Shown piece by piece: positions 2,258 to 60,026 of a stretch of DNA of 64,000 nt. The stretch is taken from contig JAOAHC010000041.1 in the NCBI GenBank assembly GCA_026415435.1, positions 4,290 to 68,289 on the forward strand, read 5' to 3'. How positions within the stretch are numbered: the stretch's first letter is position 1; each line of letters starts with the position of its first letter. The stretch is from Clostridia bacterium (GTDB lineage: Bacteria; Bacillota; Clostridia; TANB77; CAG-465). The translations under genes were made by a program, and so were the position numbers. Below the pieces are notes generated by a model. The model did not search any database. It was not told the origin of the DNA and saw only the letters and a list, made by a program, of their open reading frames with translations.

Positions 2258-3334
2258 ATGATACGTGTTAACTTTCTTCCAATATTAATAGTTTTATTTT
2301 TAGTATGGGAGTTATATAGAATTATTAAAATTAGAAAAAATGGGATAAATATTATAAGAGAGGTAGTTGTACAAGCTTTATTTGTCTATATTATGCTACT
2401 AATAAATGTTGTATTTTTCCCTATGAATTCTTACTTATATTATTGGAAATTTTCATACAATTTAACTCCTATAAAAGAAACTATTTTAATGATACAAGGA
2501 GCTAATATACACACATCACTTAGAAATATTATAGGTAATTTTATTTTGTTACTACCTTTAGGCACTTTCTTGCCAGTATTAGATTTAAATTATAGGAAAT
2601 GGTACAAGACTTTCTTTTTTGGAATTGCCGTATCATTGCTAATTGAAATATTGCAGTTAGTTTTAATGATAAGAATATTTGATATTGATGATATTCTCTT
2701 CAATTCTGTTAGTGTTGTTATTGGTTACTTAGTATACTACTTTATGAATAAGATTAGAGTATTTGATAATATACTTAAAAAGATAGAAAATACCAAAAAT
2801 ATAGCTTTTTTTAAAACTTATGCTATATCTGTGGGAAGCATTGTTAGTAGTATATTAATATTGTGGGTAATAAATTATTTTAATGCAACAATACCAACAA
2901 AAAATATTTTAGATGAGAATATTCAAGGAAGAATTGTTAGTAAATGTAATCAATTTGGCTATTATTTCATATTATCAGAAAAATCAAACAATGAGATTAT
3001 TGCTTATGGCTACAGAAATACTCCATTTAATAGGGTATCACTTGGCGTTACATCTACTCCCATAACTATGAATGAATATTCTAATTCATATAATTATATG
3101 GGAAATTCTACAGTAGATGAAAAAATGTTGTATGTAGTATATGGATATAATTCAATGGGAAAAATTAAATTGGTGGTTGAAAGTAATGGCCAAGAGATAA
3201 CAACTGAAATTCCAAAAGGATACTATATATTTCCATATAAATTTGAATTTGGTGGTAAATATTCCTTTAGTATAAGATTTTTTGATAGTGCAAATAAAGA
3301 TATAACATACATGTTTGATGGTAATGATAAATAA
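2258..3334 (+). CDS. VanZ-family membrane protein with an extra ~190-aa C-terminal extracytoplasmic domain
   Basis: N-terminal ~165 aa carry 4-5 hydrophobic helices with a VanZ-like pattern; C-terminal beta-rich domain follows one more TM; RBS gagggt. Confidence 0.55.
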   Translation: MIRVNFLPILIVLFLVWELYRIIKIRKNGINIIREVVVQALFVYIMLLINVVFFPMNSYLYYWKFSYNLTPIKETILMIQGANIHTSLRNIIGNFILLLPLGTFLPVLDLNYRKWYKTFFFGIAVSLLIEILQLVLMIRIFDIDDILFNSVSVVIGYLVYYFMNKIRVFDNILKKIENTKNIAFFKTYAISVGSIVSSILILWVINYFNATIPTKNILDENIQGRIVSKCNQFGYYFILSEKSNNEIIAYGYRNTPFNRVSLGVTSTPITMNEYSNSYNYMGNSTVDEKMLYVVYGYNSMGKIKLVVESNGQEITTEIPKGYYIFPYKFEFGGKYSFSIRFFDSANKDITYMFDGNDK

Positions 3335-3359
3335 GTATAAATAATAAATCTATTTAAAA

Positions 3360-3409
3360 CACCTAAAAATGTTAGATAAAAGTCTGATGTTTTTGGGTGT
3401 ATTTTTATA
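3360..3409 (+). terminator. putative rho-independent terminator after the vanZ-like gene (long-loop hairpin cacctaaaaa...tttttgggtg followed by a T-run)
   Basis: inverted repeat with one G-U wobble, followed by tatttttat. Confidence 0.35.
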
Positions 3410-3513
3410 ACAGAATACTAAAAAAATTATACATTAAAAGATAAATAATGCTGCATGTGAAAGTCAGATTTTGATATAAATTAGTCGTAATATAAATGTT
3501 ATTAAAAGTTTAT

Positions 3514-3541
3514 TGACAATATATTCAATATACTGTAAAAT
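3514..3541 (+). promoter_or_regulatory. sigma-A-type promoter for the giant surface-protein gene (TTGACA-N16-TAAAAT)
   Basis: consensus -35 TTGACA at 3514-3519, -10 taaaat at 3536-3541, then RBS aagaggt before the ATG at 3602. Confidence 0.5.
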
Positions 3542-3601
3542 AAACATATATAATATAAAATTAATATTTTATAAAAATACATATGTAAAAGAGGTAAAAT
3601 T

Positions 3602-6600
3602 ATGAGAAATATAAAAGGAATATCGCTAATAACGTTAGTAATAACGATAATAGTTATAATTATAATATCAACTGCAGTAATACTTACTGTAACTAATAAT
3701 ATAGGAGAACCAGCAGCTAGAGCAAGATTTATGAACGACATAAGAAATGTTGAAGATGCTATCTCTTTATATAAAACAAGTAAATATGCAAATAGCCAAA
3801 GCGAAAATATAAATCCTATAGATATAGATAAGGGAATATCAGGAATAGTAGATGTAACAACTCTATCAGATGGTTTAGTAAGCCATATGGAAGAAGTATT
3901 TGATACAACTATAGATACTAAACAAGGAAAACTATACTATGTAAAAATGTCTGATTTAAATTTGAACATAAGTAGTGCACCTGCAAAAGAAGGCGGATAT
4001 ATAACAAAGAATTCAAGTATAATACAAGATATGGATACCGGTAAAGTATTTTATGAAGAAGGACAAGATATAGGTAGTAAAAGATGGTATAGTATATATG
4101 GTGGAGCAGAAGTAGCAAGAGAAGAAATACTTCCAACGTTGCAGATGGAAGCAACTCCAGCACAAGAACCAGATACAGGAGCTACTACAGAAGTAAATGT
4201 AAAAATGCTAGCAAATAATGCAAACAGGATAGAGTATAGCTTAGATGGAGAGTCATATAGCTTGTATGAAGGAAGCTTCAGAGTATATGATAATGGAACA
4301 GTATATGGAAGGGCATTAAATGAAGTAGGAGAAGCAACAGACCAGTTAGACATAGTGAATATAAAGAAAGAACCTGACGTAGAAATAGTAGCAAATCCAG
4401 AACAGAAAATAGAAAATAAACCATCAGGAAATGTAACAGTAACAATAAATACAAGAAGTGCAGATGTGGTACAATATAGTTTTGATGGTGAAACGTATAC
4501 ACCATATAATGCGCCATTTATAGTAAATACAAATGGAACAATATATGCAAAGGCAATAAACACATACGGGGAATCAGAAGCTACAATAGAGATAATAACA
4601 ATAGGAGATGAACCACCTGTAGTAATAGCTTCAAAATGGGATAATGAAAATGAAGGAAATGAACCATTACTTACAAAGGGTGAAAACAGTACCCAAAAGA
4701 TCTTAAAACCAATGGAATGGGTAGGAAATGAGTGGAAAGAGGTAACAGACTTAGATAAAGTATGGTATTCATATAGTACAGACTCACAGTATTGGGCAAA
4801 TGCGCAAAGTGCAGATGGCTCAATGTGGGTATGGATACCAAGATTTGCATATAAGATAACTAGTGGTGTACATAGTAATACAGCAGGAACAGTAGATATA
4901 AAATTCATACAAGGTGATGCAGATGCACCATCAGGATATACTTTAGCATCGGCATTTGAAGTAGAGCCAAAAGTAGGAGAAAAACTACATTTACAAGGAA
5001 TATGGGTAGCAAAATTTGAAGCAAGTAAATTATCATATAAAGATGCAAATAATAAAACTAAGTATAGAATACAAGTAAAACCAGGAGTAGTAAGCTGGAG
5101 ATCAATAAGGATGAGAGATGCATTTAATTATTGCGTAAATATGAAAACAGATAGTGCATATGGTTTTGGAACAGATGGTATAAGTGTGGATACTCACTTG
5201 ATTAAAAACGGAGAATGGGATGCTATAACATACTTGACGCAAAGTAAATATGGAACAAAAGGTCAAGAAGTATGGTTAAATAATGACTACTATTTTAAAA
5301 CAGGACGTGCAGGAAAAACTGTTTCATCTAAGTATGGAGGAATAGTTAACACAAATACATATACATACGATAATGCAAAATATGGAGTAAATGCAAGTAC
5401 AACAAAGAATGTATATGGAATATATGATATGTCAGGTGGAGCAAAAGAAATGACAGCTTCATATGTAAATAATAATCATAGATTTATAAAATATTCAGGT
5501 GGAGTATATAGCGGTTTAGAAAAGTATTTTGACAAGTATCCTTCGTCTCAATTAGATAAAGATTACGCCGCAAAATCTCCAAATTCCACAGTAAGGCTTA
5601 GTATATCAAATCAGAATTATCAGTTGTTATCAGGATTAAATGATAGTAGCGTATATAATACTAGTAGTAGTACAGATTATAGATTTTTGTCTACACAGGT
5701 AAACTCATATAGTAGTTGGTTTTCAGACTATAGTATCTATCCACAAAATTCATCTCCTTTTATTGCAAGAGGAGGTAGCAGACCAGGAAGCACAGAAAAT
5801 CCAAAAGTAGGTATATATGCATATGAAGGCTATACAGGATATGCATCATCAGGAGTAGGCTTTAGACCAGTATTATCAATAAAAGAAGAAATAGAGATTA
5901 TGCCAGATAAGGTGGCAGAACCAAGTATATATGTAACATCAAAAATTGCCGAAGAAGGAACAGATATTGAGTTTCCGGAATATGAAGATACAAGTACAGT
6001 TTTAAAAACAGGAGAAAAAGTAGTAATAGCATATCCGAAAGAAGCAGAATATATGTACTATAAAAAGTGGACTTCAACAGCTGAACCTTCTACATGGACC
6101 TTAATAAATAATAGTGATGCTAACTTAGTATTTGACGAAGCTTCAGGAATGTATTTATATAGTATTACATATATACCTAGGTCAACAAAATTTAAGGCAT
6201 ATTGTAGTAAGGGGCCAGCAGCAACAGATTCAGAAGAGGATTATTTAGAAGTAATGTATGATACAACAAAACCAGGTGTAGTAATAACAGGACCAAATAA
6301 ATCAGGTATAAAACCAGGAGAGAGTGTAACATATACTATAGTATTTAGCGATAATACTAATGAATTAAACGAAGCAATATTAAATGAGAGCGACTTATAC
6401 GATAAGATAATTGTTAAAGCAGGAACAAGTATAATATCAGAAGATGAAATAACAAAAGTAGTAGAAGCAGATGCAAATGATATAAGTAAGTGGAATGTTA
6501 CTTTAAATGTAGATTCAGGTGTTACAAGAAATATATCAGGTGTGAAAATAGAAGTTCAAGCAGGAGCAGCAGAAGATTTATCAGGCAATAAAAGTAATCT

Positions 6601-8629
6601 AAAAAGCAGCTCGTCATTTTCAGTAGATAAAGCGGCACCAACAGTATCATTCTCACCAAACGGAGGGTTAGATAAGCCACTTAGTTCAAGGGTTACAGTA
6701 AGTGATACAGGAGGAAGTGGAGTAGATCCAAATTCTCTACAATATATATGGAGTGCAAGCGAAAGCGAACCTACAAGTGGATGGAATACATTTACGAGTG
6801 GAGCACTTATAACAGGTAGTGCATCAGTATCACAATATTTATGGATAAAATGTAGTGATAAAGCAGGAAATACAACAGTAACACAGTCTAACTTATTTGA
6901 AATGGATACGACACCTCCAAATAGTCCGACAATGGTAGCAAATCCAGTAGGATGGACTAATGGAAACGTATCAGTAACAATAACATATCCATCAGACACA
7001 AAAGTAAAAGAATATAGTTTAAATGGAACAACGTGGAGTAACTATGCATCTGCAATAGTAGTAAATACAAATGGGACAACAGTATATGCAAGAGGAAAAG
7101 ATGCGTCAGGTAATATAAGTGAAGCATCTACAATAACAATAACAAATATTGACAGAACAGCGCCAACAATTACATTTGGTACAAATGGTGGTGTTGATAT
7201 GGAAACAGCAAGTACTACAGTAAATGTGACGGATGTTGGAGGAGGAGTAAATGCAAGTACATTGCAATACATATGGGATACTCAAAACTTATCTGCTCCT
7301 ACAAGCGGCTGGACATCATTTACAAATGGGGCAACATTAACAAAATCAAATTACACAACAATATATTTATGGGTAAAAGCAACAGACAATGCAGGAAATT
7401 CTGTCACTATAGTATCAAATATGTTTAAAGCTTTAGAAGTACCTTCTGCAAATAAACCAGTGTTAGCACCAGGAATGACAGCAGTAAATTGGAATGGCTC
7501 TTCATGGGTAGCTGTAGCAAATCCTGATACAAATACTACATGGTATAACTATGACGGTAAACAATGGGCAAATGCAATGACAGCGGATGGATCAATGTGG
7601 GTATGGATACCAAGATATATATATAAGATAACAAGTGGTTGGCATACTCAATATGCAAGTGAAATACAGATACAATTTACTAGGGATACAAATGATGATT
7701 GGAATAGTAGTAAAATAGGTTTAATTGACCGTTCTCCGGGTGCAAGTGCATCAAATAACAAATGGACAAATCATCCAGCATTTACATTTGGAAGCACTGA
7801 AGTAAAAGGAATATGGGTAGCAAAATTTGAAGCAGGTGGAAGTACTAGTGCTGTGGATGTAAAACCAAATGTATCAGTATTAAGAATTTTGACTATTGAT
7901 TCTATGTTCACAGCATGTAGAATTATGGAGACAAACTCAAGATATGGTTGGGGTACAAGTGGAGCTGGAATAGATACGCATATGATGAAAAATATAGAAT
8001 TCGGTGCAGCTATGTATTTATCTAGTAGTAAATATGGAAAAAATGGTGAAGTATGGGTAAATCCACTTAACAGTTTTCTTACTGGTTATTCAGGTAAAGC
8101 TGCAAACTCTGGATCTCTAGGAATAGCTTCAACTTATCCATATTATGACACAACATATGGAGTAAATGCCGGTACAACAGGAAATGTATATGGTATATTT
8201 GATTTTAGTGGTTGTACTTGGGAAAGACTTGCAGCTTACATAGATAATAACAATGCAAATCTAACAACTTATGGGGCAAGTTTATATTATGCAGATCCAA
8301 AATACAAAGACGTATATACTAAAGCAACCTCTGAGTCTATAGTAAATAACTATAACCTTGCAGCAAGTAATAAAAAAGGAGACGCTGTATATGAGACTTC
8401 AAATGTAGGCAATGGAGGATCTTCAGGACATAATCAATGGTATGGTGGATTATCAAATATGCCATATTCAAGTAGCCCTTTCTTTATGAGAGGTGACTAT
8501 AATGGGGCGGGTTATAGTGGTAGTTCTTATGGCGCATATTCACTTTATCAAACTACTGGTACAAGTTCAGGTGATATTGGTAAGTATCAAGGTTTCCGTC
8601 CTGTTCTAATAGTAGCTGACGGAATATAG
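3602..8629 (+). CDS. giant (1675 aa) membrane-anchored surface protein: prepilin-like N-terminus, Ig/Fn3-like repeats, two FGE-sulfatase/DUF1566-like (C-type-lectin-fold) domains
   Basis: Single uninterrupted ORF with a strong promoter and RBS. N-terminus MRNIKG|ISLITLVITIIVIIII followed by a pilin-like helix PAARARFMNDIRNVEDAISLY. Two copies of a ~370-aa module containing WVWIPR, GIWVAKFEA, YGI(Y/F)D(M/F)SG and GFRPVL, which resemble the FGE motifs GLYDMSGNVWEW, RGGS and GFR. Repeated ~90-aa beta-sandwich units (TAPT(V/I)(S/T)F..NGG...LQYIW...PTSGW) lie between them. Confidence 0.8.
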   Translation: MRNIKGISLITLVITIIVIIIISTAVILTVTNNIGEPAARARFMNDIRNVEDAISLYKTSKYANSQSENINPIDIDKGISGIVDVTTLSDGLVSHMEEVFDTTIDTKQGKLYYVKMSDLNLNISSAPAKEGGYITKNSSIIQDMDTGKVFYEEGQDIGSKRWYSIYGGAEVAREEILPTLQMEATPAQEPDTGATTEVNVKMLANNANRIEYSLDGESYSLYEGSFRVYDNGTVYGRALNEVGEATDQLDIVNIKKEPDVEIVANPEQKIENKPSGNVTVTINTRSADVVQYSFDGETYTPYNAPFIVNTNGTIYAKAINTYGESEATIEIITIGDEPPVVIASKWDNENEGNEPLLTKGENSTQKILKPMEWVGNEWKEVTDLDKVWYSYSTDSQYWANAQSADGSMWVWIPRFAYKITSGVHSNTAGTVDIKFIQGDADAPSGYTLASAFEVEPKVGEKLHLQGIWVAKFEASKLSYKDANNKTKYRIQVKPGVVSWRSIRMRDAFNYCVNMKTDSAYGFGTDGISVDTHLIKNGEWDAITYLTQSKYGTKGQEVWLNNDYYFKTGRAGKTVSSKYGGIVNTNTYTYDNAKYGVNASTTKNVYGIYDMSGGAKEMTASYVNNNHRFIKYSGGVYSGLEKYFDKYPSSQLDKDYAAKSPNSTVRLSISNQNYQLLSGLNDSSVYNTSSSTDYRFLSTQVNSYSSWFSDYSIYPQNSSPFIARGGSRPGSTENPKVGIYAYEGYTGYASSGVGFRPVLSIKEEIEIMPDKVAEPSIYVTSKIAEEGTDIEFPEYEDTSTVLKTGEKVVIAYPKEAEYMYYKKWTSTAEPSTWTLINNSDANLVFDEASGMYLYSITYIPRSTKFKAYCSKGPAATDSEEDYLEVMYDTTKPGVVITGPNKSGIKPGESVTYTIVFSDNTNELNEAILNESDLYDKIIVKAGTSIISEDEITKVVEADANDISKWNVTLNVDSGVTRNISGVKIEVQAGAAEDLSGNKSNLKSSSSFSVDKAAPTVSFSPNGGLDKPLSSRVTVSDTGGSGVDPNSLQYIWSASESEPTSGWNTFTSGALITGSASVSQYLWIKCSDKAGNTTVTQSNLFEMDTTPPNSPTMVANPVGWTNGNVSVTITYPSDTKVKEYSLNGTTWSNYASAIVVNTNGTTVYARGKDASGNISEASTITITNIDRTAPTITFGTNGGVDMETASTTVNVTDVGGGVNASTLQYIWDTQNLSAPTSGWTSFTNGATLTKSNYTTIYLWVKATDNAGNSVTIVSNMFKALEVPSANKPVLAPGMTAVNWNGSSWVAVANPDTNTTWYNYDGKQWANAMTADGSMWVWIPRYIYKITSGWHTQYASEIQIQFTRDTNDDWNSSKIGLIDRSPGASASNNKWTNHPAFTFGSTEVKGIWVAKFEAGGSTSAVDVKPNVSVLRILTIDSMFTACRIMETNSRYGWGTSGAGIDTHMMKNIEFGAAMYLSSSKYGKNGEVWVNPLNSFLTGYSGKAANSGSLGIASTYPYYDTTYGVNAGTTGNVYGIFDFSGCTWERLAAYIDNNNANLTTYGASLYYADPKYKDVYTKATSESIVNNYNLAASNKKGDAVYETSNVGNGGSSGHNQWYGGLSNMPYSSSPFFMRGDYNGAGYSGSSYGAYSLYQTTGTSSGDIGKYQGFRPVLIVADGI
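4814..5023 (+). repeat. intragenic DNA repeat, copy 1 (FGE-like domain A), with near-identical stretches shared with 7586..7834
   Basis: A 31-mer gatggctcaatgtgggtatggataccaagat at 4814-4844 differs by 1 nt from 7586-7616. The 27-mer ggaatatgggtagcaaaatttgaagca at 4997-5023 is identical to 7808-7834. Confidence 0.7.
7586..7834 (+). repeat. intragenic DNA repeat, copy 2 (FGE-like domain B)
   Basis: see copy 1; the high nucleotide identity in patches contrasts with the otherwise diverged domain copies. Confidence 0.7.
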
Positions 8630-8667
8630 AAAGTAAATAATATTACAGGAAAATGAGATAGTAGATA

Positions 8668-8715
8668 AGAACACTGAGATTACATTTCGTAAAAATCAGT
8701 GTTCTTCTATTTGTA
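8668..8715 (+). terminator. putative terminator after the giant gene (aagaacactga...tcagtgttctt hairpin followed by a T-rich tract)
   Basis: an 11-bp inverted repeat with a 17-nt loop, followed by ctatttgtag; the T-run is weak. Confidence 0.35.
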
Positions 8716-8800
8716 GTTAAACGATTATAAATTTAAATTTACTTTTTATATTGTTTATGATATAATTATGAATATAAAATGTTTTTAGGAGGAATGCCAA

Positions 8801-9127
8801 TTGGGAGTTCTCATTTTCGCTTTTATTTTTACTTTTGGTATAATATCGTTTGTTTTTAGTCTTATTATGTTGCTTATAAAAAAACTGAAAAATAAGACTC
8901 CTTGCATATTAAAAGAAATAGAGACATTTACTATGAAAATATGCAATAACTTGGATAGTGTGTATAAAACTATAATTTTATTGATAATTCTATTACAGTT
9001 TCTATTATTCTGGGGATACAATATTCTTGGATATATACCAGTTAATGTAAACATTGTTTTTGGTGTACTTATGGCTTTTATACATTTTTTATTTTTTCAT
9101 AATAAGAATATATATACATATAAGTAA
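8801..9127 (+). CDS. small hypothetical membrane protein (108 aa, TTG start)
   Basis: RBS aggagg 8 nt upstream of TTG; two to three hydrophobic helices. A minus-strand ORF at 8785..9054 overlaps it; the plus-strand ORF was preferred because of its RBS and its orientation with the neighbouring genes. Confidence 0.4.
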   Translation: MGVLIFAFIFTFGIISFVFSLIMLLIKKLKNKTPCILKEIETFTMKICNNLDSVYKTIILLIILLQFLLFWGYNILGYIPVNVNIVFGVLMAFIHFLFFHNKNIYTYK

Positions 9128-9144
9128 AAATTTTCATTTGGTTA

Positions 9145-9180
9145 AGGAAATAGTTTATAAAAACTATTTCCTTATTTGTC
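9145..9180 (+). terminator. rho-independent terminator (aaggaaatagttt / aaactatttcctt hairpin)
   Basis: perfect 13-bp stem with a 4-nt loop, followed by atttgtc. Confidence 0.55.
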
Positions 9181-9222
9181 TATACATGGTATAATATTTA
9201 ATTAAAAGGAGATACATATAGT

Positions 9223-11408
<2,186 letters not shown>

Positions 11409-13043: not shown

Positions 13044-14207
13044 ATGTATGGTTTAGTTTTAGAAGGTGGAGGTGCCAGAGGAGCTTATCAAATAGGAGCA
13101 GTAAAGGCTTTATTTGAAAATGGTTATGAAATTGGTGCTATTACAGGAACTTCAATTGGGGCAATTAATGGAGCAATGATCGCTCAAGGTGATTTTGATC
13201 TTGCATATAAATTATGGAAGGACATAAGTTTTTCAAAAATAATGGATGTGGATCAAGAAAAATTAAGTAGAGTTTTAAAAAAAAGTATTGACTTTGGAAT
13301 GTTAAAATATTTATCTACACTGGTAAGAGAAACTATATCTAATGGTGGAATTAACACATCTAAAATGCGAGAACTATTTAAACAATATATTGATGAGGAT
13401 AAAATAAGAAATTCTAATATAGAATTTGGACTGGTAACGGTGTGCATTACTGATAGAAAACCTCTTGAACTATTCATAGAAAATATTACTAAGGGAAGTT
13501 TAATTGATTATTTAATGGCATCTGCTAGATTACCTATTTTTAAATCTGAAGCAATTGAGAATAAACACTATTTAGATGGAGGGTTTTATAATAATTGTCC
13601 AATAAATATGCTTCATAAAAAGTGCTACAATGATATAATTATTGTTCGTACAAGTAGCAAAGGGCGTATAAGAGACTTAAAGAAGATTAAAAAAAGTGGT
13701 GCTAATATTATCTTAATAAGTCCTGTAAGTGAATTACAAGGTATAATGAATTTTGATAATAAAACATTAAATGAAATGATTAAACTTGGATATTATGATG
13801 CTTTGAAAGTGATTAAAGGACTAGAAGGAATAAACAGTTATATTGAGCCTGTTGATGAAAAATCAATATTTAAAGCTTTATGCAACTATAACTTTCATGA
13901 CATTGTTGAAATATCTAATGAATTGAATATTAATCTTGAAATGGATGAAATGAAACTTCTTATAGAAAAAATAATACCTAGTATAACTTCTAAATTAGGA
14001 TATAAAAATGTTGCTACATACAAGCAAAGTTTATATATAATTTTAGAATACATATCAAAAAAAGAAGAAATAGATTTACTAAAGGTATATAAATTAAAGG
14101 AATTAATACTTGAAATCCAAAATAAAATTAAAACACCTCATAAAAAAGGTTTTGATAAAGCAATATATAAATTTGTAAAACATTTTAATACTAATAATTT
14201 AGATTAG
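13044..14207 (+). CDS. patatin-like phospholipase
   Basis: GGGARG oxyanion motif and GTSIG (GxSxG) nucleophile elbow near the N-terminus. Confidence 0.8.
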   Translation: MYGLVLEGGGARGAYQIGAVKALFENGYEIGAITGTSIGAINGAMIAQGDFDLAYKLWKDISFSKIMDVDQEKLSRVLKKSIDFGMLKYLSTLVRETISNGGINTSKMRELFKQYIDEDKIRNSNIEFGLVTVCITDRKPLELFIENITKGSLIDYLMASARLPIFKSEAIENKHYLDGGFYNNCPINMLHKKCYNDIIIVRTSSKGRIRDLKKIKKSGANIILISPVSELQGIMNFDNKTLNEMIKLGYYDALKVIKGLEGINSYIEPVDEKSIFKALCNYNFHDIVEISNELNINLEMDEMKLLIEKIIPSITSKLGYKNVATYKQSLYIILEYISKKEEIDLLKVYKLKELILEIQNKIKTPHKKGFDKAIYKFVKHFNTNNLD

Positions 14208-14274
14208 TGCATACAATCATAATATATTTAATTTATAATATATTTATATTGATTAATATATTGTGAGGGTGATT

Positions 14275-15060
14275 ATGTTGAAAAAATTTTGTGTTTTGGG
14301 TACTGATAAAAGAAGTGTTAAGCTAAGAGAAATGTATATAAGTGAAAAGGTGCAAATAACAAGTTATGATAAAGCAGAAGTAGTAATAGCACCTGTACCA
14401 TTTTCAAGGGATGAAATAAATATAACTGGTGAAATACTAACATGTGATGAATTAATTAATGTTATGTCAAATACAAAGAATATTCTATTTTCAGGAGCTA
14501 TATCAGATAGTATAAAAGAAAAATTAAATCAAAATAGAATTGAATTTTATGATTTATTTGATATAGAAGAAGTAGCTATAATGAATGCTATTCCAACAGC
14601 TGAAGGTGCTATATGTCTTGCTATGGAAAATACTGAGTATACTTTGCATAATTCAAATGTATTAATAACTGGATATGGCAGAATAGGAAAAATACTTGCT
14701 AAAATGCTAGTTGGTATAGGTGCAAATGTATATTGTGAAGCTAGAAATGAAAAAGATTTGGCAATGATTGAGGCAATGGGATATAATAGTGTGAGATTGA
14801 ATGACATGGATAGTTTTTTAGGGGAGATAGACATAGTATATAATACAATTCCAACCTTAATTTTTGATGAAACCAGATTAAAGCTATTAAAAAAAGATGT
14901 TCTTATTATTGATCTTGCTTCAAATCCTGGTGGAGTTGATTTTACAAAAGCAAAAGAACTTGAAAAAAATGTTATTTGGGCATTATCACTTCCCGGAAAA
15001 GTTGCACCAGTATCTGCAGCTAAATATTTAAAAAATGCTATAGATAAGTTATTAAAATAA
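14275..15060 (+). CDS. DpaA-like protein (dipicolinate synthase subunit A family / NAD(P)-binding), with no dpaB partner downstream
   Basis: ATG at 14275 after gagggtg; central Rossmann motif ITGYGRIGKILAKML; overall layout like SpoVFA; no flavoprotein B subunit follows. Confidence 0.45.
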   Translation: MLKKFCVLGTDKRSVKLREMYISEKVQITSYDKAEVVIAPVPFSRDEINITGEILTCDELINVMSNTKNILFSGAISDSIKEKLNQNRIEFYDLFDIEEVAIMNAIPTAEGAICLAMENTEYTLHNSNVLITGYGRIGKILAKMLVGIGANVYCEARNEKDLAMIEAMGYNSVRLNDMDSFLGEIDIVYNTIPTLIFDETRLKLLKKDVLIIDLASNPGGVDFTKAKELEKNVIWALSLPGKVAPVSAAKYLKNAIDKLLK

Positions 15061-17491: not shown

Positions 17492-18514
17492 ATGGAAAAA
17501 CTAGTAATATATAATAAACATAAAATATTTTTATATACAGAAGCAATATTATATTTTGTATTAATTGTCTTTATAATTTTTTTACACATATATGGTAACA
17601 TATACATAAGACTAGTTCCTCTATTATTTTTTTTGGGATTACTTGGTAATATGCTATTTGACAGGCCTATACTTACTAGTACATATGGATCGATAATTAC
17701 ATATACATTACTTTATATGCATGGTTCTACTAATGTTTTAGAAAATCTATATAGTTGTGTTTTTGTTTTTATTTCAATATGGTCTGGTGAGATCTTAGGA
17801 GAGTTTTTACATAAATTACATGATCATTATAACAAAGTGGAAGTTATTTCATTTAATAAAAAAATATATCTTTATGTGATGACTGCTGTTTTTATAGTTG
17901 GACCTGTATTATTTAATACATATATTAATGGAGATATTTTTAAGTATAACGAAGCAAAACTAAAATTTAATAATTATATATCACAAAATTATAATAATAT
18001 AGTAATTGTTAATTCAAGATACAACTCACTTAAACCTTCCGGATATATATTTGAAGTTAAAAATATTGATCCACAAAATACTTCGAAAATATATAATATT
18101 TCAGTATATACAAATAATAATATTTATGATGAGTATAAAGATACTATAATAGAAAAAAATAATATTAGTTATAAACAAAGTCTTACTAGTTTTATAAAAG
18201 ATAAAAATATAGATAACGAATATACCGATTTTGAATTTGACTTAGTATTTGAAAATGATTCTAGTATTTTGAAAATACAAAAAACAGTAAAAGATATTGA
18301 TGATTTGCAGCTTGATAATTTTTCAAGCGAACTAGTAAATATATTAGAAAAATTTAAAGAATTTAATTTGTATAATAGAATATCAAAACTATCAATTAGC
18401 ATTAAATCATATAACAATAGTATTCAAGAGGCAATAATATATAAACAAAATTTTGATAATAAGTCTGATTATTTTAAAGATAGCTTAAAAACAGAATATA
18501 TAGAAGAAAATTAA
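17492..18514 (+). CDS. hypothetical membrane protein (4-5 N-terminal TM helices plus an Asn/Lys/Tyr-rich soluble domain)
   Basis: good promoter and RBS; AT-biased third positions; no recognisable family. Confidence 0.55.
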   Translation: MEKLVIYNKHKIFLYTEAILYFVLIVFIIFLHIYGNIYIRLVPLLFFLGLLGNMLFDRPILTSTYGSIITYTLLYMHGSTNVLENLYSCVFVFISIWSGEILGEFLHKLHDHYNKVEVISFNKKIYLYVMTAVFIVGPVLFNTYINGDIFKYNEAKLKFNNYISQNYNNIVIVNSRYNSLKPSGYIFEVKNIDPQNTSKIYNISVYTNNNIYDEYKDTIIEKNNISYKQSLTSFIKDKNIDNEYTDFEFDLVFENDSSILKIQKTVKDIDDLQLDNFSSELVNILEKFKEFNLYNRISKLSISIKSYNNSIQEAIIYKQNFDNKSDYFKDSLKTEYIEEN

Positions 18515-18535
18515 TAGTGTACAAAGGAGGAAAAT

Positions 18536-19432
18536 GTGAGAAAGAGACATCACAAAAGAAGATTATCACTCATAACTGATGTATTAATATTTATAGTTTT
18601 GTTAGTTATAGCTTCTCCATTTTTAAAACTGCTTAATTCAAATTCAATCGAAAAGCAAATAAATTATGAAAGCGTATTGGCACTTAATAATAGTGAAATT
18701 CTTGAAAAAAGTATTAAAGAACAAAATAAGCTTTTTATACAAAAAATAAAAGAATATTATGGTATTAGTATTAAATATGGAGATGAAACTAAAGGTTTGG
18801 CTACAAATGTAAATGCAGTTGGACAATATGATGATAATATTGTAAACAACAATATTATATTGATACAAAATGCACTTGAAAAATATCCTAAAACTTTATT
18901 TGATACATTTAAAAATGGATCAGTTAAGTGTAGTGTCTCAATAATATTGCTAGATAAATTTAATAACAACAATTTAGCACTTGCATCTAAAAACGGTGTA
19001 AATGATTTTAAAATATATTTAAGTAATACGCAAAAGTTTGAAAGAGCTTTTCATCATGAAGTGTTTCATATTATGGAATATTATATGCAAGCTGCAACTA
19101 ATGTACAAATCATATATCCTAATTGGAATAATCTAAACCCATTTGATTTTTCATATACAACTGATTTATCCAAGATAGATAATAAATATGTATATGCCTC
19201 AAGGACTGATTTATCCAAGATATATTTTGTAAGTAAATATTCTAAAACTTCAGCTAAAGAAGATAGAGCAGAAATCTTTGCTGAACTAATGATTATGAAT
19301 AAAAAATCAGAATATTTAAAAGATGGTCAAAATATAAGAAAAAAAGCTGAATATATTTCACAGATAATAGATAAAAATTTAAAAAACTTAAGAGTTGTTG
19401 AGACTAAATATTGGAATAACTATATAAAGTAA
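18536..19432 (+). CDS. membrane-anchored putative zincin-like metallopeptidase (HExxH)
   Basis: Positively charged N-terminus followed by one TM helix (LITDVLIFIVLLVIASPF). HHEVFHIMEY matches a HExxH zinc site, with a candidate third ligand in EDRAEIFAELM about 70 aa downstream. Translationally coupled to 17492..18514 across a 21-nt gap. Confidence 0.5.
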   Translation: MRKRHHKRRLSLITDVLIFIVLLVIASPFLKLLNSNSIEKQINYESVLALNNSEILEKSIKEQNKLFIQKIKEYYGISIKYGDETKGLATNVNAVGQYDDNIVNNNIILIQNALEKYPKTLFDTFKNGSVKCSVSIILLDKFNNNNLALASKNGVNDFKIYLSNTQKFERAFHHEVFHIMEYYMQAATNVQIIYPNWNNLNPFDFSYTTDLSKIDNKYVYASRTDLSKIYFVSKYSKTSAKEDRAEIFAELMIMNKKSEYLKDGQNIRKKAEYISQIIDKNLKNLRVVETKYWNNYIK

Positions 19433-19461
19433 TTGAAAATATGCGCCAAGTGTGATATAAT
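19433..19461 (+). promoter_or_regulatory. promoter TTGAAA-N17-TGTGATATAAT overlapped by the GC-rich inverted repeat GCGCCA...TGGCGC
   Basis: consensus -35 and extended -10; inverted repeat 19443-19448 / 19471-19476. Confidence 0.45.
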
Positions 19462-19505
19462 CACCACAAATGGCGCTTATTTGCATTTTTTGGGGATGAA
19501 TTTTA

Positions 19506-21104
19506 ATGAGTTTTATAAAAATAGGAAAAAATTATTCAAATGTTATCTTAAAAACATTTTGTATATATATATTAATGTTAATATGCTCAAATATTTATAT
19601 TTGGGCTGATTCTGTTAATAATGGTACAAGTACGGCTTTAAATACTGAAAATAAAATTGATAATAATAGTTATTCAGAAATGCAGAATGTATTAAACAAT
19701 ATAAGAGAAGAAATAAATGAAATGGACGTTAAGCTACAAAAAATAAGATCTAAAAGTGAATATCAAGCATATCCAGCAGTAAGACTTAATGTTGACACCC
19801 CAATATTTGGTATATATTCTGTTACAAATAGAAGATTAAAAATAACAGAAGATGTATCACCAGCTGATATAACTAGCGGCTATTCTATAAGAGATATTAT
19901 AAAATCTAATAAGCTTAAAGTACCTAGTTTTAAAGTGGTATCTTTTGTAGTTATAACAAGAGATATAAAAATTAATAATTCTATGACTAAATCTGATTAT
20001 AATATTTGTATTAATAAACTTCTTAAGTATTTAGAAGTAGCAAAAAATATTAACAATTCAATAGATAGTCAAATAAATAATATATTAAATTCATATAAAG
20101 GTAAAGATATAATTGAACTTAAAAATAAGTTAAATGACAATTTAAATGAAATAAATAATGAAAATCAAATTGTTATAGATTCGATAAATAAACTAAACTT
20201 ACTTCAGTATGATGGAGCATATGATTATTACAAGCAATCATATGATATTAAACAAAGTGTTGATGAATTTTCAAAATTAATAAATAATTCCCTTACAAAT
20301 GATGAAAATATAAAAAATATTGAGAGTAATGTTGCAAAAATAAAATCAAGCACGGATATTCTTAAGGAGAAAGTAGAAAACTCATATAATGAAAGTATAA
20401 AAAATATTGATAAACTTAAAATGTTGACTTACGTACAACAAAAAATGGATGATCAAATTAACTATTTAAATCAATATATAAAAAATAGCCAAAAAGACCT
20501 AAATATGGGTATAGACTATACACAAAGTTTGAATATAAGTGATGCATATATTATGGATAGTAATATTATATACAATATTACATCTAGAAATATTTTAAAA
20601 GAACTTGAAAACTATAAAGATATTGTAGATTCAAAAATAATTGAACTTAGTGAAACTAATAGTTCTGATGTTCAAAATATTGATACAACTACATTAACTC
20701 AAACAGGGAATGAAATTAATGCAACAAATAAGTTAGATTCAGATCTTGAACTTATTCAAAAAATAAATACAATATATATTGATTTTTTGAATAAAACGCA
20801 CACATTTATTTTAAATAATATAAATTTTCTTAATAATAAATCAAAAAATGATATATCATATCTGACAATGAATACATCTATAGAAATATATAATTATATA
20901 GAATATGTTTATTCAAATCTACCTAATATTGTTGAAAAAACAGAGCAAAGTATAGATAAAAATAGTATATATAGTTTAAGTAATACTGTACAAAATTTAA
21001 AAATTGAACTTAATAATATAAATCAATATAGCGTACAGATTGATGGGTTATACATTCAAAACTATAAAACTACCAGTGTAGATAGGAGTAGTAATTCTAG
21101 GTAA
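19506..21104 (+). CDS. secreted Asn/Ile/Lys-rich coiled-coil protein (532 aa), hypothetical
   Basis: N-terminal signal peptide (cleavage near IWA|DS); long heptad-like low-complexity helical regions; RBS ggggatga. Confidence 0.5.
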   Translation: MSFIKIGKNYSNVILKTFCIYILMLICSNIYIWADSVNNGTSTALNTENKIDNNSYSEMQNVLNNIREEINEMDVKLQKIRSKSEYQAYPAVRLNVDTPIFGIYSVTNRRLKITEDVSPADITSGYSIRDIIKSNKLKVPSFKVVSFVVITRDIKINNSMTKSDYNICINKLLKYLEVAKNINNSIDSQINNILNSYKGKDIIELKNKLNDNLNEINNENQIVIDSINKLNLLQYDGAYDYYKQSYDIKQSVDEFSKLINNSLTNDENIKNIESNVAKIKSSTDILKEKVENSYNESIKNIDKLKMLTYVQQKMDDQINYLNQYIKNSQKDLNMGIDYTQSLNISDAYIMDSNIIYNITSRNILKELENYKDIVDSKIIELSETNSSDVQNIDTTTLTQTGNEINATNKLDSDLELIQKINTIYIDFLNKTHTFILNNINFLNNKSKNDISYLTMNTSIEIYNYIEYVYSNLPNIVEKTEQSIDKNSIYSLSNTVQNLKIELNNINQYSVQIDGLYIQNYKTTSVDRSSNSR

Positions 21105-25225: not shown

Positions 25226-27064
25226 TTATTCTACTGTAACTGATTTTGCAAGATTTCTAGGTTGATCTATATCGCAGTCCCTTAAAATAGCAGTTTTATA
25301 TGCTATAAGTTGCAATGCTACCATAGTCACAAGCGCTTGTGTAAAATCAGTAGCACTAGGAAGAACTAGTTTGATATCAAAAAATCCACTAGTATCTTCA
25401 ACACTTTTTATATATTTATCTTCTAAATCTCTAGTTGTTATAAATACTACAAATGAACCTCTAGCTTTAGTCTCTTTTACGTTGCTTACAGTTTTTTCAA
25501 ATAAAATTTCATCTGTTGCAACGGCAATTAAAGGTGTGCCTTGTTCAATTAAAGATATTGTACCATGTTTTAATTCACCTGCAGCGTAAGCTTCACTATG
25601 CATATATGATATCTCTTTTAATTTTAAAGAACCTTCTAAACAAACGGCATTATCTATCCCGCGACCGATATAGAAGAGATGATCATGTTTGTATATATAT
25701 TCAGATACTTTTTTATACTCCTCTTCATAGTTTTTAATAACGTCTGATATTGTGTTTTGAATATTTTTAAAATCATTATATATATGTTCTTCAAAAGTTT
25801 TATCTATTAATCCCTTTTTTATAGCAGTATTTAGAGCAAGAGTAGAGAGTACAGCTACTTGACTTGCATAACCTTTTGTAGTAGCAACGGCAATCTCAGG
25901 ACCTGCATGAGTATATATTGTTATATCAGATTCTCTAGATATAGTTGAACCCACAGCGTTTACTATTCCAAGCGTATGAGCTCCTTTTTGTTTAGCTATT
26001 CGTAAAGCTGCTAAAGTATCAGCAGTTTCACCAGACTGAGATATTATTATAACTAAGGTGTTGTTAGTTATAAGTTGGTTTTTGTATCTGTATTCTGAAG
26101 CTACTTCTACTGTAACTGGTATTAAAGCATATTTTTCAAATAAGAATTTACCTACAAGACCTGCATGCATAGCACTACCACAAGCAACTATATGAATATT
26201 ATCATAGTTTGAAATATCTATGTTTTGATCATAAGTGTTGTTTGAAAAATATCTTTCGAATACTTGTTTTAATACTTTTGGTTGTTCATTTATTTCTTTT
26301 AGCATAAAATGATCAAAGCCACTTTTTTGATATTCTGAGCTACTCCAAGTCGCAGTTAAAATCTCTTTTTCTATTTTTTCTAAATTAGAATTAAATATTT
26401 CAATACTATCCTTAGATATTTTAGCAAATTCTTCATGTTCTAATAGAATATATCTGTTTGTGTAATTTAAGATAGCTGAAATATCAGAAGAAATAAAGTT
26501 TTCATCTGATGCCCCCACTCCTATAACAAGAGGACTATCTTTTCTTACAGCATATATTGTATCTGGTTCGTCATCAAAGATAATTGCAAAAGCGTATGAA
26601 CCTCTAAAATTTTTACATGATTGAGCGATACATTTAATCTTATTTTTTTCAGTTTTATATATTTCGTTTATATATGCACAAGCTACTTCAGTATCAGTTT
26701 GCGTTTTAAATTCAGTTCCTTTTAGAATTAAATCTTGTTTTAATTCTAAATAGTTCTCAATTATTCCATTGTGAACTAGAGTAACGTTTCCACATTTATG
26801 TGGATGTGCATTTGTCTCGTTTGGTACTCCATGAGTAGCCCATCTTGTATGACCTATTCCTAAATTTAGTGTACTAGTATTTTTAGACAATGATTCTTCT
26901 AGATTTTTAATTTTCCCAGTAGATTTATATAGGTTGATTTTTTCATTTTCGTAAACTGCAATACCTGCAGAATCATACCCTCTATATTCTAATTTTTTAA
27001 GTCCGCTAAGTAGAACTTCCTTAGCATTATTTTTGGTTCCTGTATATCCAATTATTCCACACAT
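25226..27064 (-). CDS. glmS: glutamine--fructose-6-phosphate aminotransferase
   Basis: MCGIIGY N-terminal nucleophile; 612 aa; two SIS domains. Confidence 0.95.
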   Translation of the reverse strand: MCGIIGYTGTKNNAKEVLLSGLKKLEYRGYDSAGIAVYENEKINLYKSTGKIKNLEESLSKNTSTLNLGIGHTRWATHGVPNETNAHPHKCGNVTLVHNGIIENYLELKQDLILKGTEFKTQTDTEVACAYINEIYKTEKNKIKCIAQSCKNFRGSYAFAIIFDDEPDTIYAVRKDSPLVIGVGASDENFISSDISAILNYTNRYILLEHEEFAKISKDSIEIFNSNLEKIEKEILTATWSSSEYQKSGFDHFMLKEINEQPKVLKQVFERYFSNNTYDQNIDISNYDNIHIVACGSAMHAGLVGKFLFEKYALIPVTVEVASEYRYKNQLITNNTLVIIISQSGETADTLAALRIAKQKGAHTLGIVNAVGSTISRESDITIYTHAGPEIAVATTKGYASQVAVLSTLALNTAIKKGLIDKTFEEHIYNDFKNIQNTISDVIKNYEEEYKKVSEYIYKHDHLFYIGRGIDNAVCLEGSLKLKEISYMHSEAYAAGELKHGTISLIEQGTPLIAVATDEILFEKTVSNVKETKARGSFVVFITTRDLEDKYIKSVEDTSGFFDIKLVLPSATDFTQALVTMVALQLIAYKTAILRDCDIDQPRNLAKSVTVE

Positions 27065-27099: not shown

Positions 27100-27285
27100 C
27101 GATTTTAAATATTTCTAAATTATATGTGTTTGTAGCAATATATGATTTTGCTTTTTTGTACATATATAACGATAATAGAAAGTACCGTGATAGCATCCGC
27201 TGACAAATCGACAACTATCATCCTCGTCAACATATATTATTTGCAATTATGATTTAATATATGTCCATGCGCTAATTAAACTTTC
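27100..27285 (-). ncRNA. glmS ribozyme (GlcN6P-responsive self-cleaving leader)
   Basis: Minus-strand leader reads ...UUAAUUAGCGCAUGG...GACGAGGAUGAUAGUUGUCGAUUUGUCAGCGGAUGCUAUCACGGUAC, matching the conserved glmS core GACGAGGAUGG.GG...UCGAAUU..CGGCGGAUGCC.CCCGG. It lies directly 5' of glmS. Confidence 0.7.
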
Positions 27286-52896: not shown

Positions 52897-52915
52897 AATG
52901 AAAGGGGATTTTAAA

Positions 52916-53659
52916 GTGAATACACTTTTAGAAATAAATAATTTACATACAAAAGTTGAGGACATGCAAATACTTAAAGGACTTAATTTAAAAATAAATG
53001 AAGGAGAAGTACATGTTATAATGGGGCCAAATGGTGCAGGTAAATCTACTCTTGCAAATACTTTGATGGCACATCCTAAATATACAATTACTGAAGGTAA
53101 TATAATATTTGAAGGTGAAGAAATAAATAATCTTAAAGCTGATGAAAGAGCAAAAAGAGGTATTTTTTTATCTTTCCAATATCCAGAAGAAGTACCTGGT
53201 ATAACAGTTGAGAACTTTTTAAGAACATCTAAATCTTTAACTTCTGCAAATCCAATATCAATATTAAATTTTAGAAGACTTCTTAAAGAGAAAATGGCAC
53301 TTTTAAAAATGGATGAAAGCTATGCTAAAAGATATTTAAATGTAGGCTTTTCAGGTGGAGAAAAAAAGAAAAATGAAGTGCTACAAATGGCTATACTAGA
53401 ACCAAAGTTAGCAATACTTGATGAAACAGATTCTGGCCTTGATGTAGACGCTATAAAAACAGTATCAGAAGGAGTAGGACTTTTATCTGATTCAAAACGC
53501 TCTATAATAATAATAACGCATCATAATAAAATATTACAATATTTAAAACCTGACTATGTTCATATATTAATAGACGGTAAAATAGTTAAAACTGGTACTA
53601 GTGAACTAGTTCATGAAGTGGAAAAAAACGGATACGAAGCATATAAAAATTTGAACTAA
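52916..53659 (+). CDS. sufC: Fe-S cluster assembly ATPase SufC
   Basis: GTG at 52916 after gaaagggga; Walker A GPNGAGKST; signature FSGGEKK. Confidence 0.9.
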   Translation: MNTLLEINNLHTKVEDMQILKGLNLKINEGEVHVIMGPNGAGKSTLANTLMAHPKYTITEGNIIFEGEEINNLKADERAKRGIFLSFQYPEEVPGITVENFLRTSKSLTSANPISILNFRRLLKEKMALLKMDESYAKRYLNVGFSGGEKKKNEVLQMAILEPKLAILDETDSGLDVDAIKTVSEGVGLLSDSKRSIIIITHHNKILQYLKPDYVHILIDGKIVKTGTSELVHEVEKNGYEAYKNLN

Positions 53660-53684
53660 GGGGGAAATAGAAAGGACAGTTACA

Positions 53685-55094
53685 ATGGAAAAAAGAAAAA
53701 AGACTTATGTCCATGATGTGGATAGAGGCGTTTACGATATAAAAAATGAAGTAAAATTCAGATATAAGGTTAAAAGTGGACTTGATGAAAATGTTGTAAA
53801 AGACATCTCTAAACAAAAGAATGAGCCTGAATGGATGACAGAGTTTAGATTAAATTCACTTAAAATATATAATGAAATAAAGTTGCCTGAATGGGGACCT
53901 GATATATCTGATTTAAATATAGATAAAATAATAACATATATAAGACCTAACACCAATATGCAAGGTAGTTGGGATAAGGTACCAGAAGATATAAAGAATA
54001 CTTTTGATAAGCTTGGAATACAAAAAGCAGAAAAACATTCACTTGCTGGTGTTGGTGCGCAGTATGATTCAGAAGTAGTATACCATAATATAAAGGAAGA
54101 CTTAATTAAGCAAGGTGTTGTGTACACTGATATGGAAACTGCCGTAAAAGAATATGAACCTATGGTAAAAGAATACTTTATGAAATGTGTTGAGCCTGAT
54201 GATCATAAATTTGCTGCACTACATGGAGCAGTATGGTCTGGGGGATCTTTTGTATATGTTCCAAAAGGTGTGCAAGTGGACATACCTCTGCAATCATATT
54301 TTAGATTAAATGCTCCAGGAGCAGGTCAATTTGAACATACTTTAATAATTGTTGATGAGGGTGCAAAATTACACTTTATTGAAGGATGTTCTGCACCTAA
54401 ATATTCAGTTAATAATTTACATGCTGGGTGTGTAGAATTATTTGTAAAAAAAGATGCAACTCTTAGATATAGTACAATAGAAAATTGGTCAAAAAATATG
54501 TATAACTTAAATACTAAACGTGCAATAGTTGAAGAAAATGCTACTATTGAGTGGGTATCTGGTTCTTTTGGTTCAAAAGTTTCTATGCTATATCCAACAA
54601 GTGTATTAAAAGGAAAAGGTGCAAAATGTGAATATACTGGTGTTACATTTGCAGGAGAAGGACAAAATCTTGATACAGGTGCACAAGTTGTTCATTTAGC
54701 GGAACATACGTATTCAACCATAAGTTCTAAATCAATATCAAAATCTGGTGGGGTAGCTACATATAGAGGATTAGTAAGAATGGGTAAAAATGCAAGACAC
54801 TCTAAATCTACAGTATCTTGTGAATCTTTAATGTTAGATGATATATCAAAATCAGATACTATACCTGTACTGGATATATTAAATGATGAAGTAGATGTAG
54901 GACATGAAGCGAAAATAGGAAGAATAAGTGATGAGACTATATTTTACCTAATGAGTAGAGGAATAAGTGAAAAAGAAGCCAAAGCTATGATAGTAAGAGG
55001 TTTTGTTGAGCCAATGTCTAAAGAATTACCTCTGGAATATGCGGTTGAAATGAACAATCTAATTAATATCGAATTAGAAGGCACAGTAGGGTAG
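53685..55094 (+). CDS. sufB: Fe-S cluster assembly protein SufB
   Basis: 469 aa; conserved C-terminus ...FYLMSRGI.E..A. Confidence 0.9.
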   Translation: MEKRKKTYVHDVDRGVYDIKNEVKFRYKVKSGLDENVVKDISKQKNEPEWMTEFRLNSLKIYNEIKLPEWGPDISDLNIDKIITYIRPNTNMQGSWDKVPEDIKNTFDKLGIQKAEKHSLAGVGAQYDSEVVYHNIKEDLIKQGVVYTDMETAVKEYEPMVKEYFMKCVEPDDHKFAALHGAVWSGGSFVYVPKGVQVDIPLQSYFRLNAPGAGQFEHTLIIVDEGAKLHFIEGCSAPKYSVNNLHAGCVELFVKKDATLRYSTIENWSKNMYNLNTKRAIVEENATIEWVSGSFGSKVSMLYPTSVLKGKGAKCEYTGVTFAGEGQNLDTGAQVVHLAEHTYSTISSKSISKSGGVATYRGLVRMGKNARHSKSTVSCESLMLDDISKSDTIPVLDILNDEVDVGHEAKIGRISDETIFYLMSRGISEKEAKAMIVRGFVEPMSKELPLEYAVEMNNLINIELEGTVG

Positions 55095-55103
55095 GTGGTA
55101 ACT

Positions 55104-57847: not shown

Positions 57848-57872
57848 TAAATATAATTAAAGTTATTATAAT

Positions 57873-59865: not shown

Positions 59866-60026
59866 AAATCATCACCCTCCACAATATTAATATATATTTG
59901 TAAAATCGCTATAATGTTGATATTATATCATAGTTATTTACATAAAACAAGACGTGTATAATATATATTTGCATATTTATGAATAATATGATAAAATATC
60001 AATGTTTAAGAGAGGAGTTTGATGAT

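Follow-up and report, generated by a model that had tools for sequence, protein, structure and literature searches.

The gene considered here lies at positions 3602–8629 (+) of a 64,000-nucleotide stretch (the window, to which all coordinates refer unless another contig is named) of contig JAOAHC010000041.1, assembly GCA_026415435.1, from a spore-forming, presumably monoderm, uncultured Clostridia bacterium. It consists of a single uninterrupted open reading frame (ORF) encoding 1675 residues followed by a stop codon, as had been proposed in an earlier sequence-only reading of the window, and its product is 100% identical to a deposited, unnamed NCBI entry ([quoted passage not shown], MAG denoting a metagenome-assembled genome). 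The encoded protein joins a pilin-like N-terminus, in which the canonical Glu at position 5 after the cleavage-site Gly (Glu5) is absent, to a chain of β-sandwich domains and two copies of a lectin-fold module, A and B (Table 1).

The β-sandwich repeats that the sequence-only reading had placed around the modules were detected with profile models and by self-comparison. The OmpL47-type model NF047446 matches three stretches of the spacer domains (E 4e-13), CHB_HEX_C_1 matches as well (E 2e-6), and residues 951–1110 align with residues 1133–1288 of the same protein. Self-comparison also aligns the two modules, with 40–47% identity per segment and 40% overall, and gives them a length of ~390–410 aa in place of the ~370 aa first estimated. 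The motifs WVWIPR, GIWVAKFEA and GFRPVL occur in both copies as originally listed, whereas YGIYDMSGG and ARGGS are confined to module A, their equivalents in module B being YGIFDFSGC and MRGDY. Anchoring by sortase, by SLH domains or as a lipoprotein was considered and rejected, the sequence containing no LPXTG, SLH, lipobox, choline-binding or other wall-binding motif.

Table 1. Features of the giant gene, its product and its immediate flanks (VR, variable region of a diversity-generating retroelement target; L088 and the P-numbered homologues are loci and proteins from the searches described in the text).
Feature	Position	Strand	Remarks
Terminator-like hairpin after the upstream VanZ-family gene	3359–3400	+	19-pair stem and T-run; absent from shuffles
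Sigma-70-type promoter match, TTGACA-17-TAAAAT	3513–3541	+	consensus match only, 11/12; surroundings very AT-rich
Ribosome-binding site AGAGG	3590–3594	+	7 nt 5' of the ATG; direct reading
Leader MRNIKG, residues 1–6	3602–3619	+	short, basic; ends in the family Gly, which is the prepilin cleavage-site Gly(-1) in the alignment
Pilin-α-1-like helix, residues 7–65	3620–3796	+	low-confidence helix prediction, PDB profile matches, GspG model match
N-terminal domain, residues 66–175	3797–4126	+	kept in the closest homologues; partly in P0004, P0005, P0035 and P0108
Two tandem β-sandwich domains, residues 178–257 and 258–344	4133–4633	+	OmpL47 / chitobiase-C-terminal type
Module A, residues 353–764	4658–5893	+	FGE-subtype C-type-lectin fold, TaqVP-like family
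Module A VR-equivalent segment, residues 705–758, ARGGS to GFRPVL	5714–5875	+	placed by homology to module B and to the VR of L088
β-Sandwich spacer, residues 765–1283	5894–7450	+	internal repeat and third OmpL47-type domain at ~1111–1190
Module B, residues 1284–1675	7451–8626	+	FGE-subtype C-type-lectin fold; C-terminal end of the protein
Module B VR-equivalent segment, residues 1612–1669, MRGDY to GFRPVL	8435–8608	+	L088 VR maps here
First downstream terminator-like hairpin	9143–9174	+	~510 nt past the stop codon, before queA

The N-terminus reads MRNIKG followed by ISLITLVITIIVIIIISTAVILTVTNNIGEPAARARFMNDIRNVEDAISLY, with Ile rather than Phe at position +1 after the Gly, where mature pilins usually have Phe or Met, and Thr rather than Glu at position +5. 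The helix that follows the Gly comprises a hydrophobic part of 24–26 residues (ISLITLVITIIVIIIISTAVILTV) and an amphipathic part (ARFMNDIRNVEDAISLY), so that the general arrangement of a pilin N-terminus, a short hydrophilic leader ending in Gly with about 20 hydrophobic residues directly after it, is present. When a profile of the family's N-termini (first ~75 residues) was compared with PDB sequences, the top ten matches were type IV pilins or pseudopilins only, including geopilin (E 2.8e-6 and 1.1e-4), MshA, PilE1, GspG, PilA5 and PilA. In these alignments the family Gly falls on the cleavage-site Gly of solved pilins (KKGFTLIEL), the sequences remain in register through the α-1C part of the helix, and GspG is covered from residue 8 to residue 56. 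The GspG model TIGR01710 gives weak matches, far below its cut-off, in 35/35 N-termini; for the window protein, residues 5–63 align with model positions 1–58 (E 0.0018, 18.3 vs 88.85 bits). The Pfam N_methyl model (PF07963) matches weakly in 14 of 35 related N-termini, with a best E of 9.7e-5. As judged from these alignments, similarity to the leader and α-1 helix of pilins is supported, and the proposal of a pilin-type N-terminus without Glu5 stands. Canonical type IV pilin membership is not supported, since the protein lacks Glu5 and does not match the N_methyl motif. AlphaFold prediction for residues 1–185, which include the segment 1–60 put forward for modelling in the sequence-only reading, returned a single 57-residue helix over residues 9–65 with low confidence (pLDDT 48; below 50 beyond residue 105), and the domain after the helix was not resolved in the model. 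That domain, residues 66–175, could be a pilin head.

The same N-terminus recurs in a large family. Among 120 listed homologues, 67 have a short basic leader, a Gly and the sequence I-[ST]-L-I-[VA]-L-V-I-T-I-I-V-I-I-I-L-A-G, followed by an amphipathic stretch of the form ...NNPI.SA.KA.F..D...F..EL.LY; the N-termini were picked by a Gly-anchored motif, and basic residues precede the Gly in all of those picked. Position +1 is Ile in 61/67; at position +5, 62/67 have Val, Ala, Ile or Thr and only two have Glu. Searched against 1.84 billion cluster representatives (clusters defined at 50% identity), the N-terminal profile matched 38,255 with E≤1e-3, of which 19,329 reached E≤1e-10. Lengths among the 150 best representatives run from 70 to more than 1100 aa, and in the 145 of these that could be scored position +5 is Val in 123, Thr in nine, Ile in six, Ala in five and Glu in none. 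Proteins of up to 2,226 aa occur among the relatives that share this N-terminus. In a search of species-representative genomes, all 77 of the 77 loci kept come from MAGs of uncultured Clostridia or Bacillota, and the samples, where named, are of ruminant or human-gut origin. A single gut MAG (CAKPEI01) encodes at least 27 distinct ORFs with the Glu5-less N-terminus in the sampled loci alone. The genes are solitary or stand in tandem arrays amid housekeeping genes, and their products carry many different C-terminal domains. C-termini of lectin-fold type are common: among 114 complete ORFs, a strict RGG...GFR pattern occurs in at least 13, and a second pattern, WLASP...VRPVVSL, ends many paralogues of 390–410 aa.

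Many paralogues of this second type in CAKPEI01 (among them L046 11360, L060 12852, L083 9977 and L041 9974; 390–410 aa) end in WLASPCV, ~35 variable residues and AVRP[VY]VSL, and differ from one another chiefly in the ~35-residue stretch. From their sequences they seem to form a hypervariable family of multiple targets, with a lectin fold of a second flavour; no template repeat for these paralogues was found in the fetched loci. At another locus, L002, a four-gene array of giant paralogues is interspersed with near-identical small proteins of 148–156 aa (13900–14370 and 18342–18788), each with an N-terminal membrane helix and a small β-rich domain; no Pfam match is on record for these proteins.

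The lectin-fold module of the window protein is itself carried by 54 of the 120 listed homologues, in up to five copies per protein, and most of these share the Glu5-less N-terminus. The earlier view of this fold as one seldom seen in Gram-positive adhesins, and not usually joined to a pilin-like anchor, is therefore wrong for this lineage. Searches of PDB sequences with each module singly gave nothing useful. A profile built from 26 modules identified one solved structure, 5VF4 (E 9.5e-5), which is TaqVP, the variable protein of a Thermus aquaticus diversity-generating retroelement (DGR) with the subtype of C-type-lectin fold named after formylglycine-generating enzyme (FGE) (10.1101/432187). 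The AlphaFold2 model of module B calculated with the family alignment is confident (pLDDT 86.4, pTM 0.92). In structural comparisons it scores 21.0 against TaqVP, with 237 residues aligned at 20% identity, and between 9.8 and 12.4 against the next six proteins (PvdO 12.4, TvpA 12.1, CarF 12.0, pFGE 11.1, EgtB 10.7, Mtd 9.8), while classical C-type lectins and the C-terminal domain of Legionella Lcl, taken as the representative of the DUF1566 type, score 5–6. In line with the FGE subtype, the FGE-sulfatase model PF03781 matches 12 of the 26 aligned family modules at E≤0.1 (best E 2.5e-7). The hidden Markov model (HMM) of DUF1566 (PF07603) has no match in the window protein. Of the two fold families first put forward, FGE was thus correct and DUF1566 was not. 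The modules also share with the FGE / SUMF1-EgtB-PvdO superfamily a set of motifs that we take to be characteristic of it, namely a K[FY]E strand, an NxEW helix, YG[IV]YDMxG and RGG...GFR.

Predicted structures of phage tail fibres share the module fold too (Foldseek E down to 6e-8). A prophage or tail-fibre origin of the giant gene was nevertheless rejected: unlike the receptor-binding proteins of tail fibres, it is chromosomal, has housekeeping genes as neighbours and encodes an N-terminus of membrane or pilin type, for which a search of 2.9 million viral contigs gave no match.

Homologues of the module are targets of DGRs. Seven IMG/VR contigs encode such homologues, at 30–36% identity, and in five of them a DGR is adjacent. 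On contig L088 (UViG_2814123063_000001, 6608–10226) the homologue is 36% identical across the whole of module B (E 1e-51) and is encoded just downstream of a reverse transcriptase (RT; RVT_1, 72 bits). Behind the RT gene lies a 144-nt template repeat (TR; 7652–7795) that is 87% identical to the 3'-terminal stretch of the module-coding region (8890–9033), the VR. All of the mismatches between the two (19/19) lie at adenines of the upstream, template copy, which identifies mutagenic homing by a DGR, and the same signature of adenine mismatches with TR and RT is present in L084, L086, L089 and L090. The L088 homologue continues into Ig-like Big_9 repeats, and its neighbouring ORFs appear tail- or baseplate-like from a reading of their translations without HMM check. 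The L088 VR maps onto residues ~1612–1669 of module B and, by homology, onto residues 705–758 of module A. Between RGG/RGD and GFRPVL lie some of the most variable columns of the family alignment, and the corresponding part of module B has many Tyr, Ser, Gly and Asn residues; on the strength of these sequence comparisons we infer that the RGG...GFRPVL surface is a putative ligand-contact site.

Proteins with the Glu5-less N-terminus can also be DGR targets on a chromosome. Locus L075 (MAG Clostridia bacterium STCSWMC_110, JAQUBQ010000064.1, 942–4695) contains a complete chromosomal DGR whose target ORF (942–2198) encodes 418 aa with the Glu5-less N-terminus, an FGE-sulfatase domain (23.5 bits) and a VR at 2066–2181. 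It is accompanied by bAvd (3097–3528, 66.9 bits), an RT gene (3512–4543, 65.8 bits) and a TR (4580–4695), and 13/13 mismatches between the TR and the 3' end of the target lie at TR adenines. Pilin domains of GspG type are mentioned among rare DGR targets in a recent survey (PMC11661182).

At the locus itself, the giant gene is preceded by the C-terminal part of relA/spoT and genes for a metallo-β-lactamase-fold (MBL) hydrolase, uracil-DNA glycosylase (UDG) and a VanZ-family protein, and is followed by queA, tgt and genes for cardiolipin synthase, a patatin and a DpaA-like protein. With housekeeping genes on both flanks, the description of a solitary gene is upheld; the promoter match listed in Table 1 would fit a promoter of its own, and because the upstream hairpin ends the VanZ-family gene the giant gene appears to be transcriptionally isolated. 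The gap between it and queA (8630–9222) is unusually long at ~590 nt and holds only short, unsupported ORFs. Over positions 3500–9000, the G+C content of the giant gene is 0.30–0.365, against ~0.25 in its flanks; this could reflect an amino-acid composition rich in Gly, Ser, Thr and Ala, or a foreign origin.

The observations made here, on how the protein is built, on the fold of its modules, on its likeness to pilins, on the extent of the family and on homologues as targets of DGRs, are, in our judgement, probably best explained by a surface ligand-binding protein, an adhesin or receptor, which is encoded by a monocistronic gene, anchored by a pilin-type helix and equipped with two TaqVP-like heads set apart by spacers. 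The basic leader and the long hydrophobic helix, whose homologues in type IV pilins are the class-III signal and the α-1 helix, would insert the protein into the membrane with its N-terminus inside and its C-terminus outside, and the helix would serve as the sole anchor of this giant protein. The chain of β-sandwich domains would span the wall and space the two modules from the cell, and each module would bind ligand through its variable RGG–GFRPVL surface, the same stretch that DGRs hypermutate in homologues. In pilus filaments Glu5 neutralises the N-terminus of the adjacent subunit, and a protein that lacks this residue cannot be an ordinary shaft subunit. We prefer a helix that stays in the membrane, with the leader either removed after Gly6 or kept; the alternative is a role as the first, tip subunit of a filament.

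Several observations weigh against this interpretation. The N_methyl / prepilin cleavage-methylation HMM, named in the sequence-only reading as a check on the pilin assignment, has no match in the window protein even at E≤10. The AlphaFold model past the helix has pLDDT below 50, so that a pilin head there is putative, and similarity among membrane helices can be inflated by hydrophobic profiles. Small residues follow the hydrophobic stretch in most relatives (consensus ...VILSLS and then NNNP), and cleavage by signal peptidase I is possible for this reason. The search for pilus machinery that had been suggested, carried out on the window and on related flanks, revealed no prepilin peptidase (A24), assembly ATPase (T2SSE-type) or canonical pilin in the 64 kb and none in ~1.4 Mb around 80 related loci, P0038 itself excepted, these negatives being soft in that they come from Pfam searches of the larger window ORFs only, from motif patterns and from PilD/PilT probes. 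As to the modules, the suggested PF03781 search on the protein itself gave 20.5 bits for module A (E 4e-4), below the gathering cut-off of 23.3, and no match for module B.

The alternative of a modular minor pilin, cut after Gly6 by prepilin peptidase and presenting the two modules as a tip subunit like GspK or PilA/B/C of S. sanguinis, appears unlikely to us. The leader, Gly and hydrophobic helix do align in register with pilins, and a missing Glu5 is a known mark of the first, capping subunit, as in GspK and S. sanguinis PilA; in filaments the Glu5 side chain makes its pair with the amine at the N-terminus of the adjacent subunit (PMC9934059). Modular pilins, in which a pilin-type leader and α-1 helix bear grafted ligand-binding modules with a predicted role in adhesion, also exist, S. 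sanguinis PilB with a vWA module and PilC with a lectin module being examples (Raynaud et al. 2021, PMC8179133; Shahin et al. 2023, PMC9934059). In two relatives, P0038 and P0057, the module type of the window protein even follows a pilin N-terminus of the canonical form GFTL(I/L)E, which makes them canonical modular pilins themselves. However, modular type IV pilins are catalogued by IPR012902/N_methyl (PMC8179133), whereas in the window protein Glu5 and Phe1 are replaced and N_methyl is not detected; they belong to one pilus operon, whereas the window family has dozens of paralogues per genome amid housekeeping genes; and at 1675 aa the window protein is about twice the size of the largest catalogued in 2021 (860 aa). 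GspK, the K of the HIJK complex, and PilA are single copies in pilus or type II secretion system (T2SS) operons together with minor-pilin partners, whereas the expanded family is Glu5-less throughout and at the loci examined neither pilus machinery nor a major pilin with Glu5 is linked to it. Dozens of Glu5-less paralogues per genome exceed what any filament tip would need, and the part of the chain expected to form the pilin head is the part with pLDDT below 50. An anchor, or a general display signal, is favoured over a tip pilin because the whole expanded family is Glu5-less and without pilus-gene linkage, and a general display signal over one operon-encoded minor pilin because there are dozens of paralogues per genome.

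Less probable again is a reading of the N-terminus as an ordinary if long signal peptide of the Sec type, or as a plain signal-anchor, with a likeness to pilins that arises from hydrophobic composition; the protein would then simply be secreted or anchored. Such a reading would fit the lack of an N_methyl match, the absence of both Glu5 and Phe1, the small residues after the hydrophobic run and the lack of pilus genes nearby in the window. Against it, the hydrophobic run of 24–26 residues exceeds the usual h-region of a cleaved Sec signal, the sequence [KR]-G-I-[ST]-L-I is conserved across the inspected N-termini despite unrelated downstream domains, the similarity to pilins continues into the amphipathic α-1C part, and no other membrane protein is found among the top ten PDB matches.

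With regard to the modules, module B has the layout of a DGR variable protein in that its C-type-lectin-fold domain carries the VR-equivalent segment at the C-terminal end, with both fold and position as in TaqVP. A local DGR was considered and rejected, since the window contains no adenine-biased repeat and no RT among the ORFs scanned; neither a TR-like copy of either VR-equivalent stretch nor an Avd was found in the 64 kb. A 64-nt adenine-biased match between window positions 7772–7834 and locus L004 was likewise set aside as a conserved coding stretch that fits AT-rich codon bias. The window protein thus differs from TaqVP, TvpA and Mtd, which share its FGE-type C-type-lectin fold as DGR variable proteins, in having no RT, Avd or TR close by, and from TaqVP, a single-domain protein without a surface-targeting signal (10.1101/432187), in carrying the module twice inside a giant multidomain chain. 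Diversification of both modules in trans, by a retroelement elsewhere in the genome, would be consistent with the active DGR targeting of close homologues in phages, with the same N-terminus on the L075 target and with the Tyr-, Ser-, Gly- and Asn-rich stretch of module B, which resembles diversified VRs; we hold it to be improbable, as the window holds no template-like copy and no RT among the ORFs scanned and, at 40% identity between the modules, one template could not serve both. That the modules are catalytic, oxidative enzymes of the FGE/EgtB/PvdO families is most improbable of all despite the weak FGE-sulfatase match: there is no invariant Cys column among the 26 aligned modules (the whole protein has five Cys, at 511, 868, 1084, 1439 and 1538), the missing copper-binding Cys pair of FGE points to a binding scaffold rather than an FGE-type enzyme, there is no DinB-like partner domain, and the modules, at ~400 aa with large insertions against the 255 positions of PF03781, are repeated and presumably extracellular.

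Elsewhere in the window, the gene at 61591–63960 (+) encodes a protein of 789 aa that combines two Big_2 domains with a type I dockerin at its C-terminus, an arrangement suggestive of cellulosome-like cohesin–dockerin display as a second surface-display route beside the pilin-like anchor. A cell-surface polysaccharide cluster extends over ~27500–52300 (+) and includes a phosphoglucomutase-family gene, an ABC-2 exporter pair, at least seven glycosyltransferase genes and several ORFs without a Pfam match; a gene for an NAD-dependent epimerase/dehydratase lies at 59979–61037. A glmS ribozyme/riboswitch (27111–27284 (-), Rfam RF00234, 69 bits) is found upstream of glmS (25226–27064 (-)). The suf Fe-S operon occupies ~52900–57850, with HMM confirmation for the SufB/D-like gene at 53685–55094 only, and three consecutive ORFs of 340, 298 and 532 aa at 17492–21104 (+) have no Pfam match.

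Both building blocks of the window protein are of known kinds, one being a pilin-type N-terminus onto which modules are grafted and the other the FGE-type lectin fold seen in DGR variable proteins. What is new is a very large class of pilin-like proteins that are Glu5-less and N_methyl-negative, the expansion of this class to dozens of copies per genome, and its coupling to lectin-fold modules, some of them DGR targets; the 1675-aa protein with two modules is a large example. Literature searches with the N-terminal peptide strings found no paper. Pilin catalogues built on N_methyl and Glu5 miss a family of at least 19,000 clusters from gut and environmental Clostridia that aligns with pilins, which suggests that a large class of surface-display proteins has gone unexplored. 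Through the combination of lectin-fold modules with active DGRs, hypermutation aimed at binding sites becomes linked to a particular Gram-positive anchoring device; in a parallel case, DGRs of Bacteroides are reported to diversify type V pilus adhesins. With its two diverged heads and no local DGR, the window protein would be a convenient test case for the ligand and for the handling of a Glu5-less helix.

Going beyond a pilin-helix-anchored receptor or adhesin, we would suggest, tentatively, that the Glu5-less Ile1 N-terminus may be a dedicated and so far undescribed sorting or display signal of this uncultured Clostridia lineage, derived from pilins, non-polymerising, and with its Gly recognised by an enzyme of prepilin-peptidase type. 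If this is true, dozens of proteins per cell would be displayed in this way, many of them with C-type-lectin-fold receptors and some hypermutated by DGRs, and the window protein, as a receptor whose two heads are borne on a long stalk, would rank with the largest of the cargoes found. The signal would then be a bacterial counterpart of the archaeal class III signals on surface proteins that do not form filaments.

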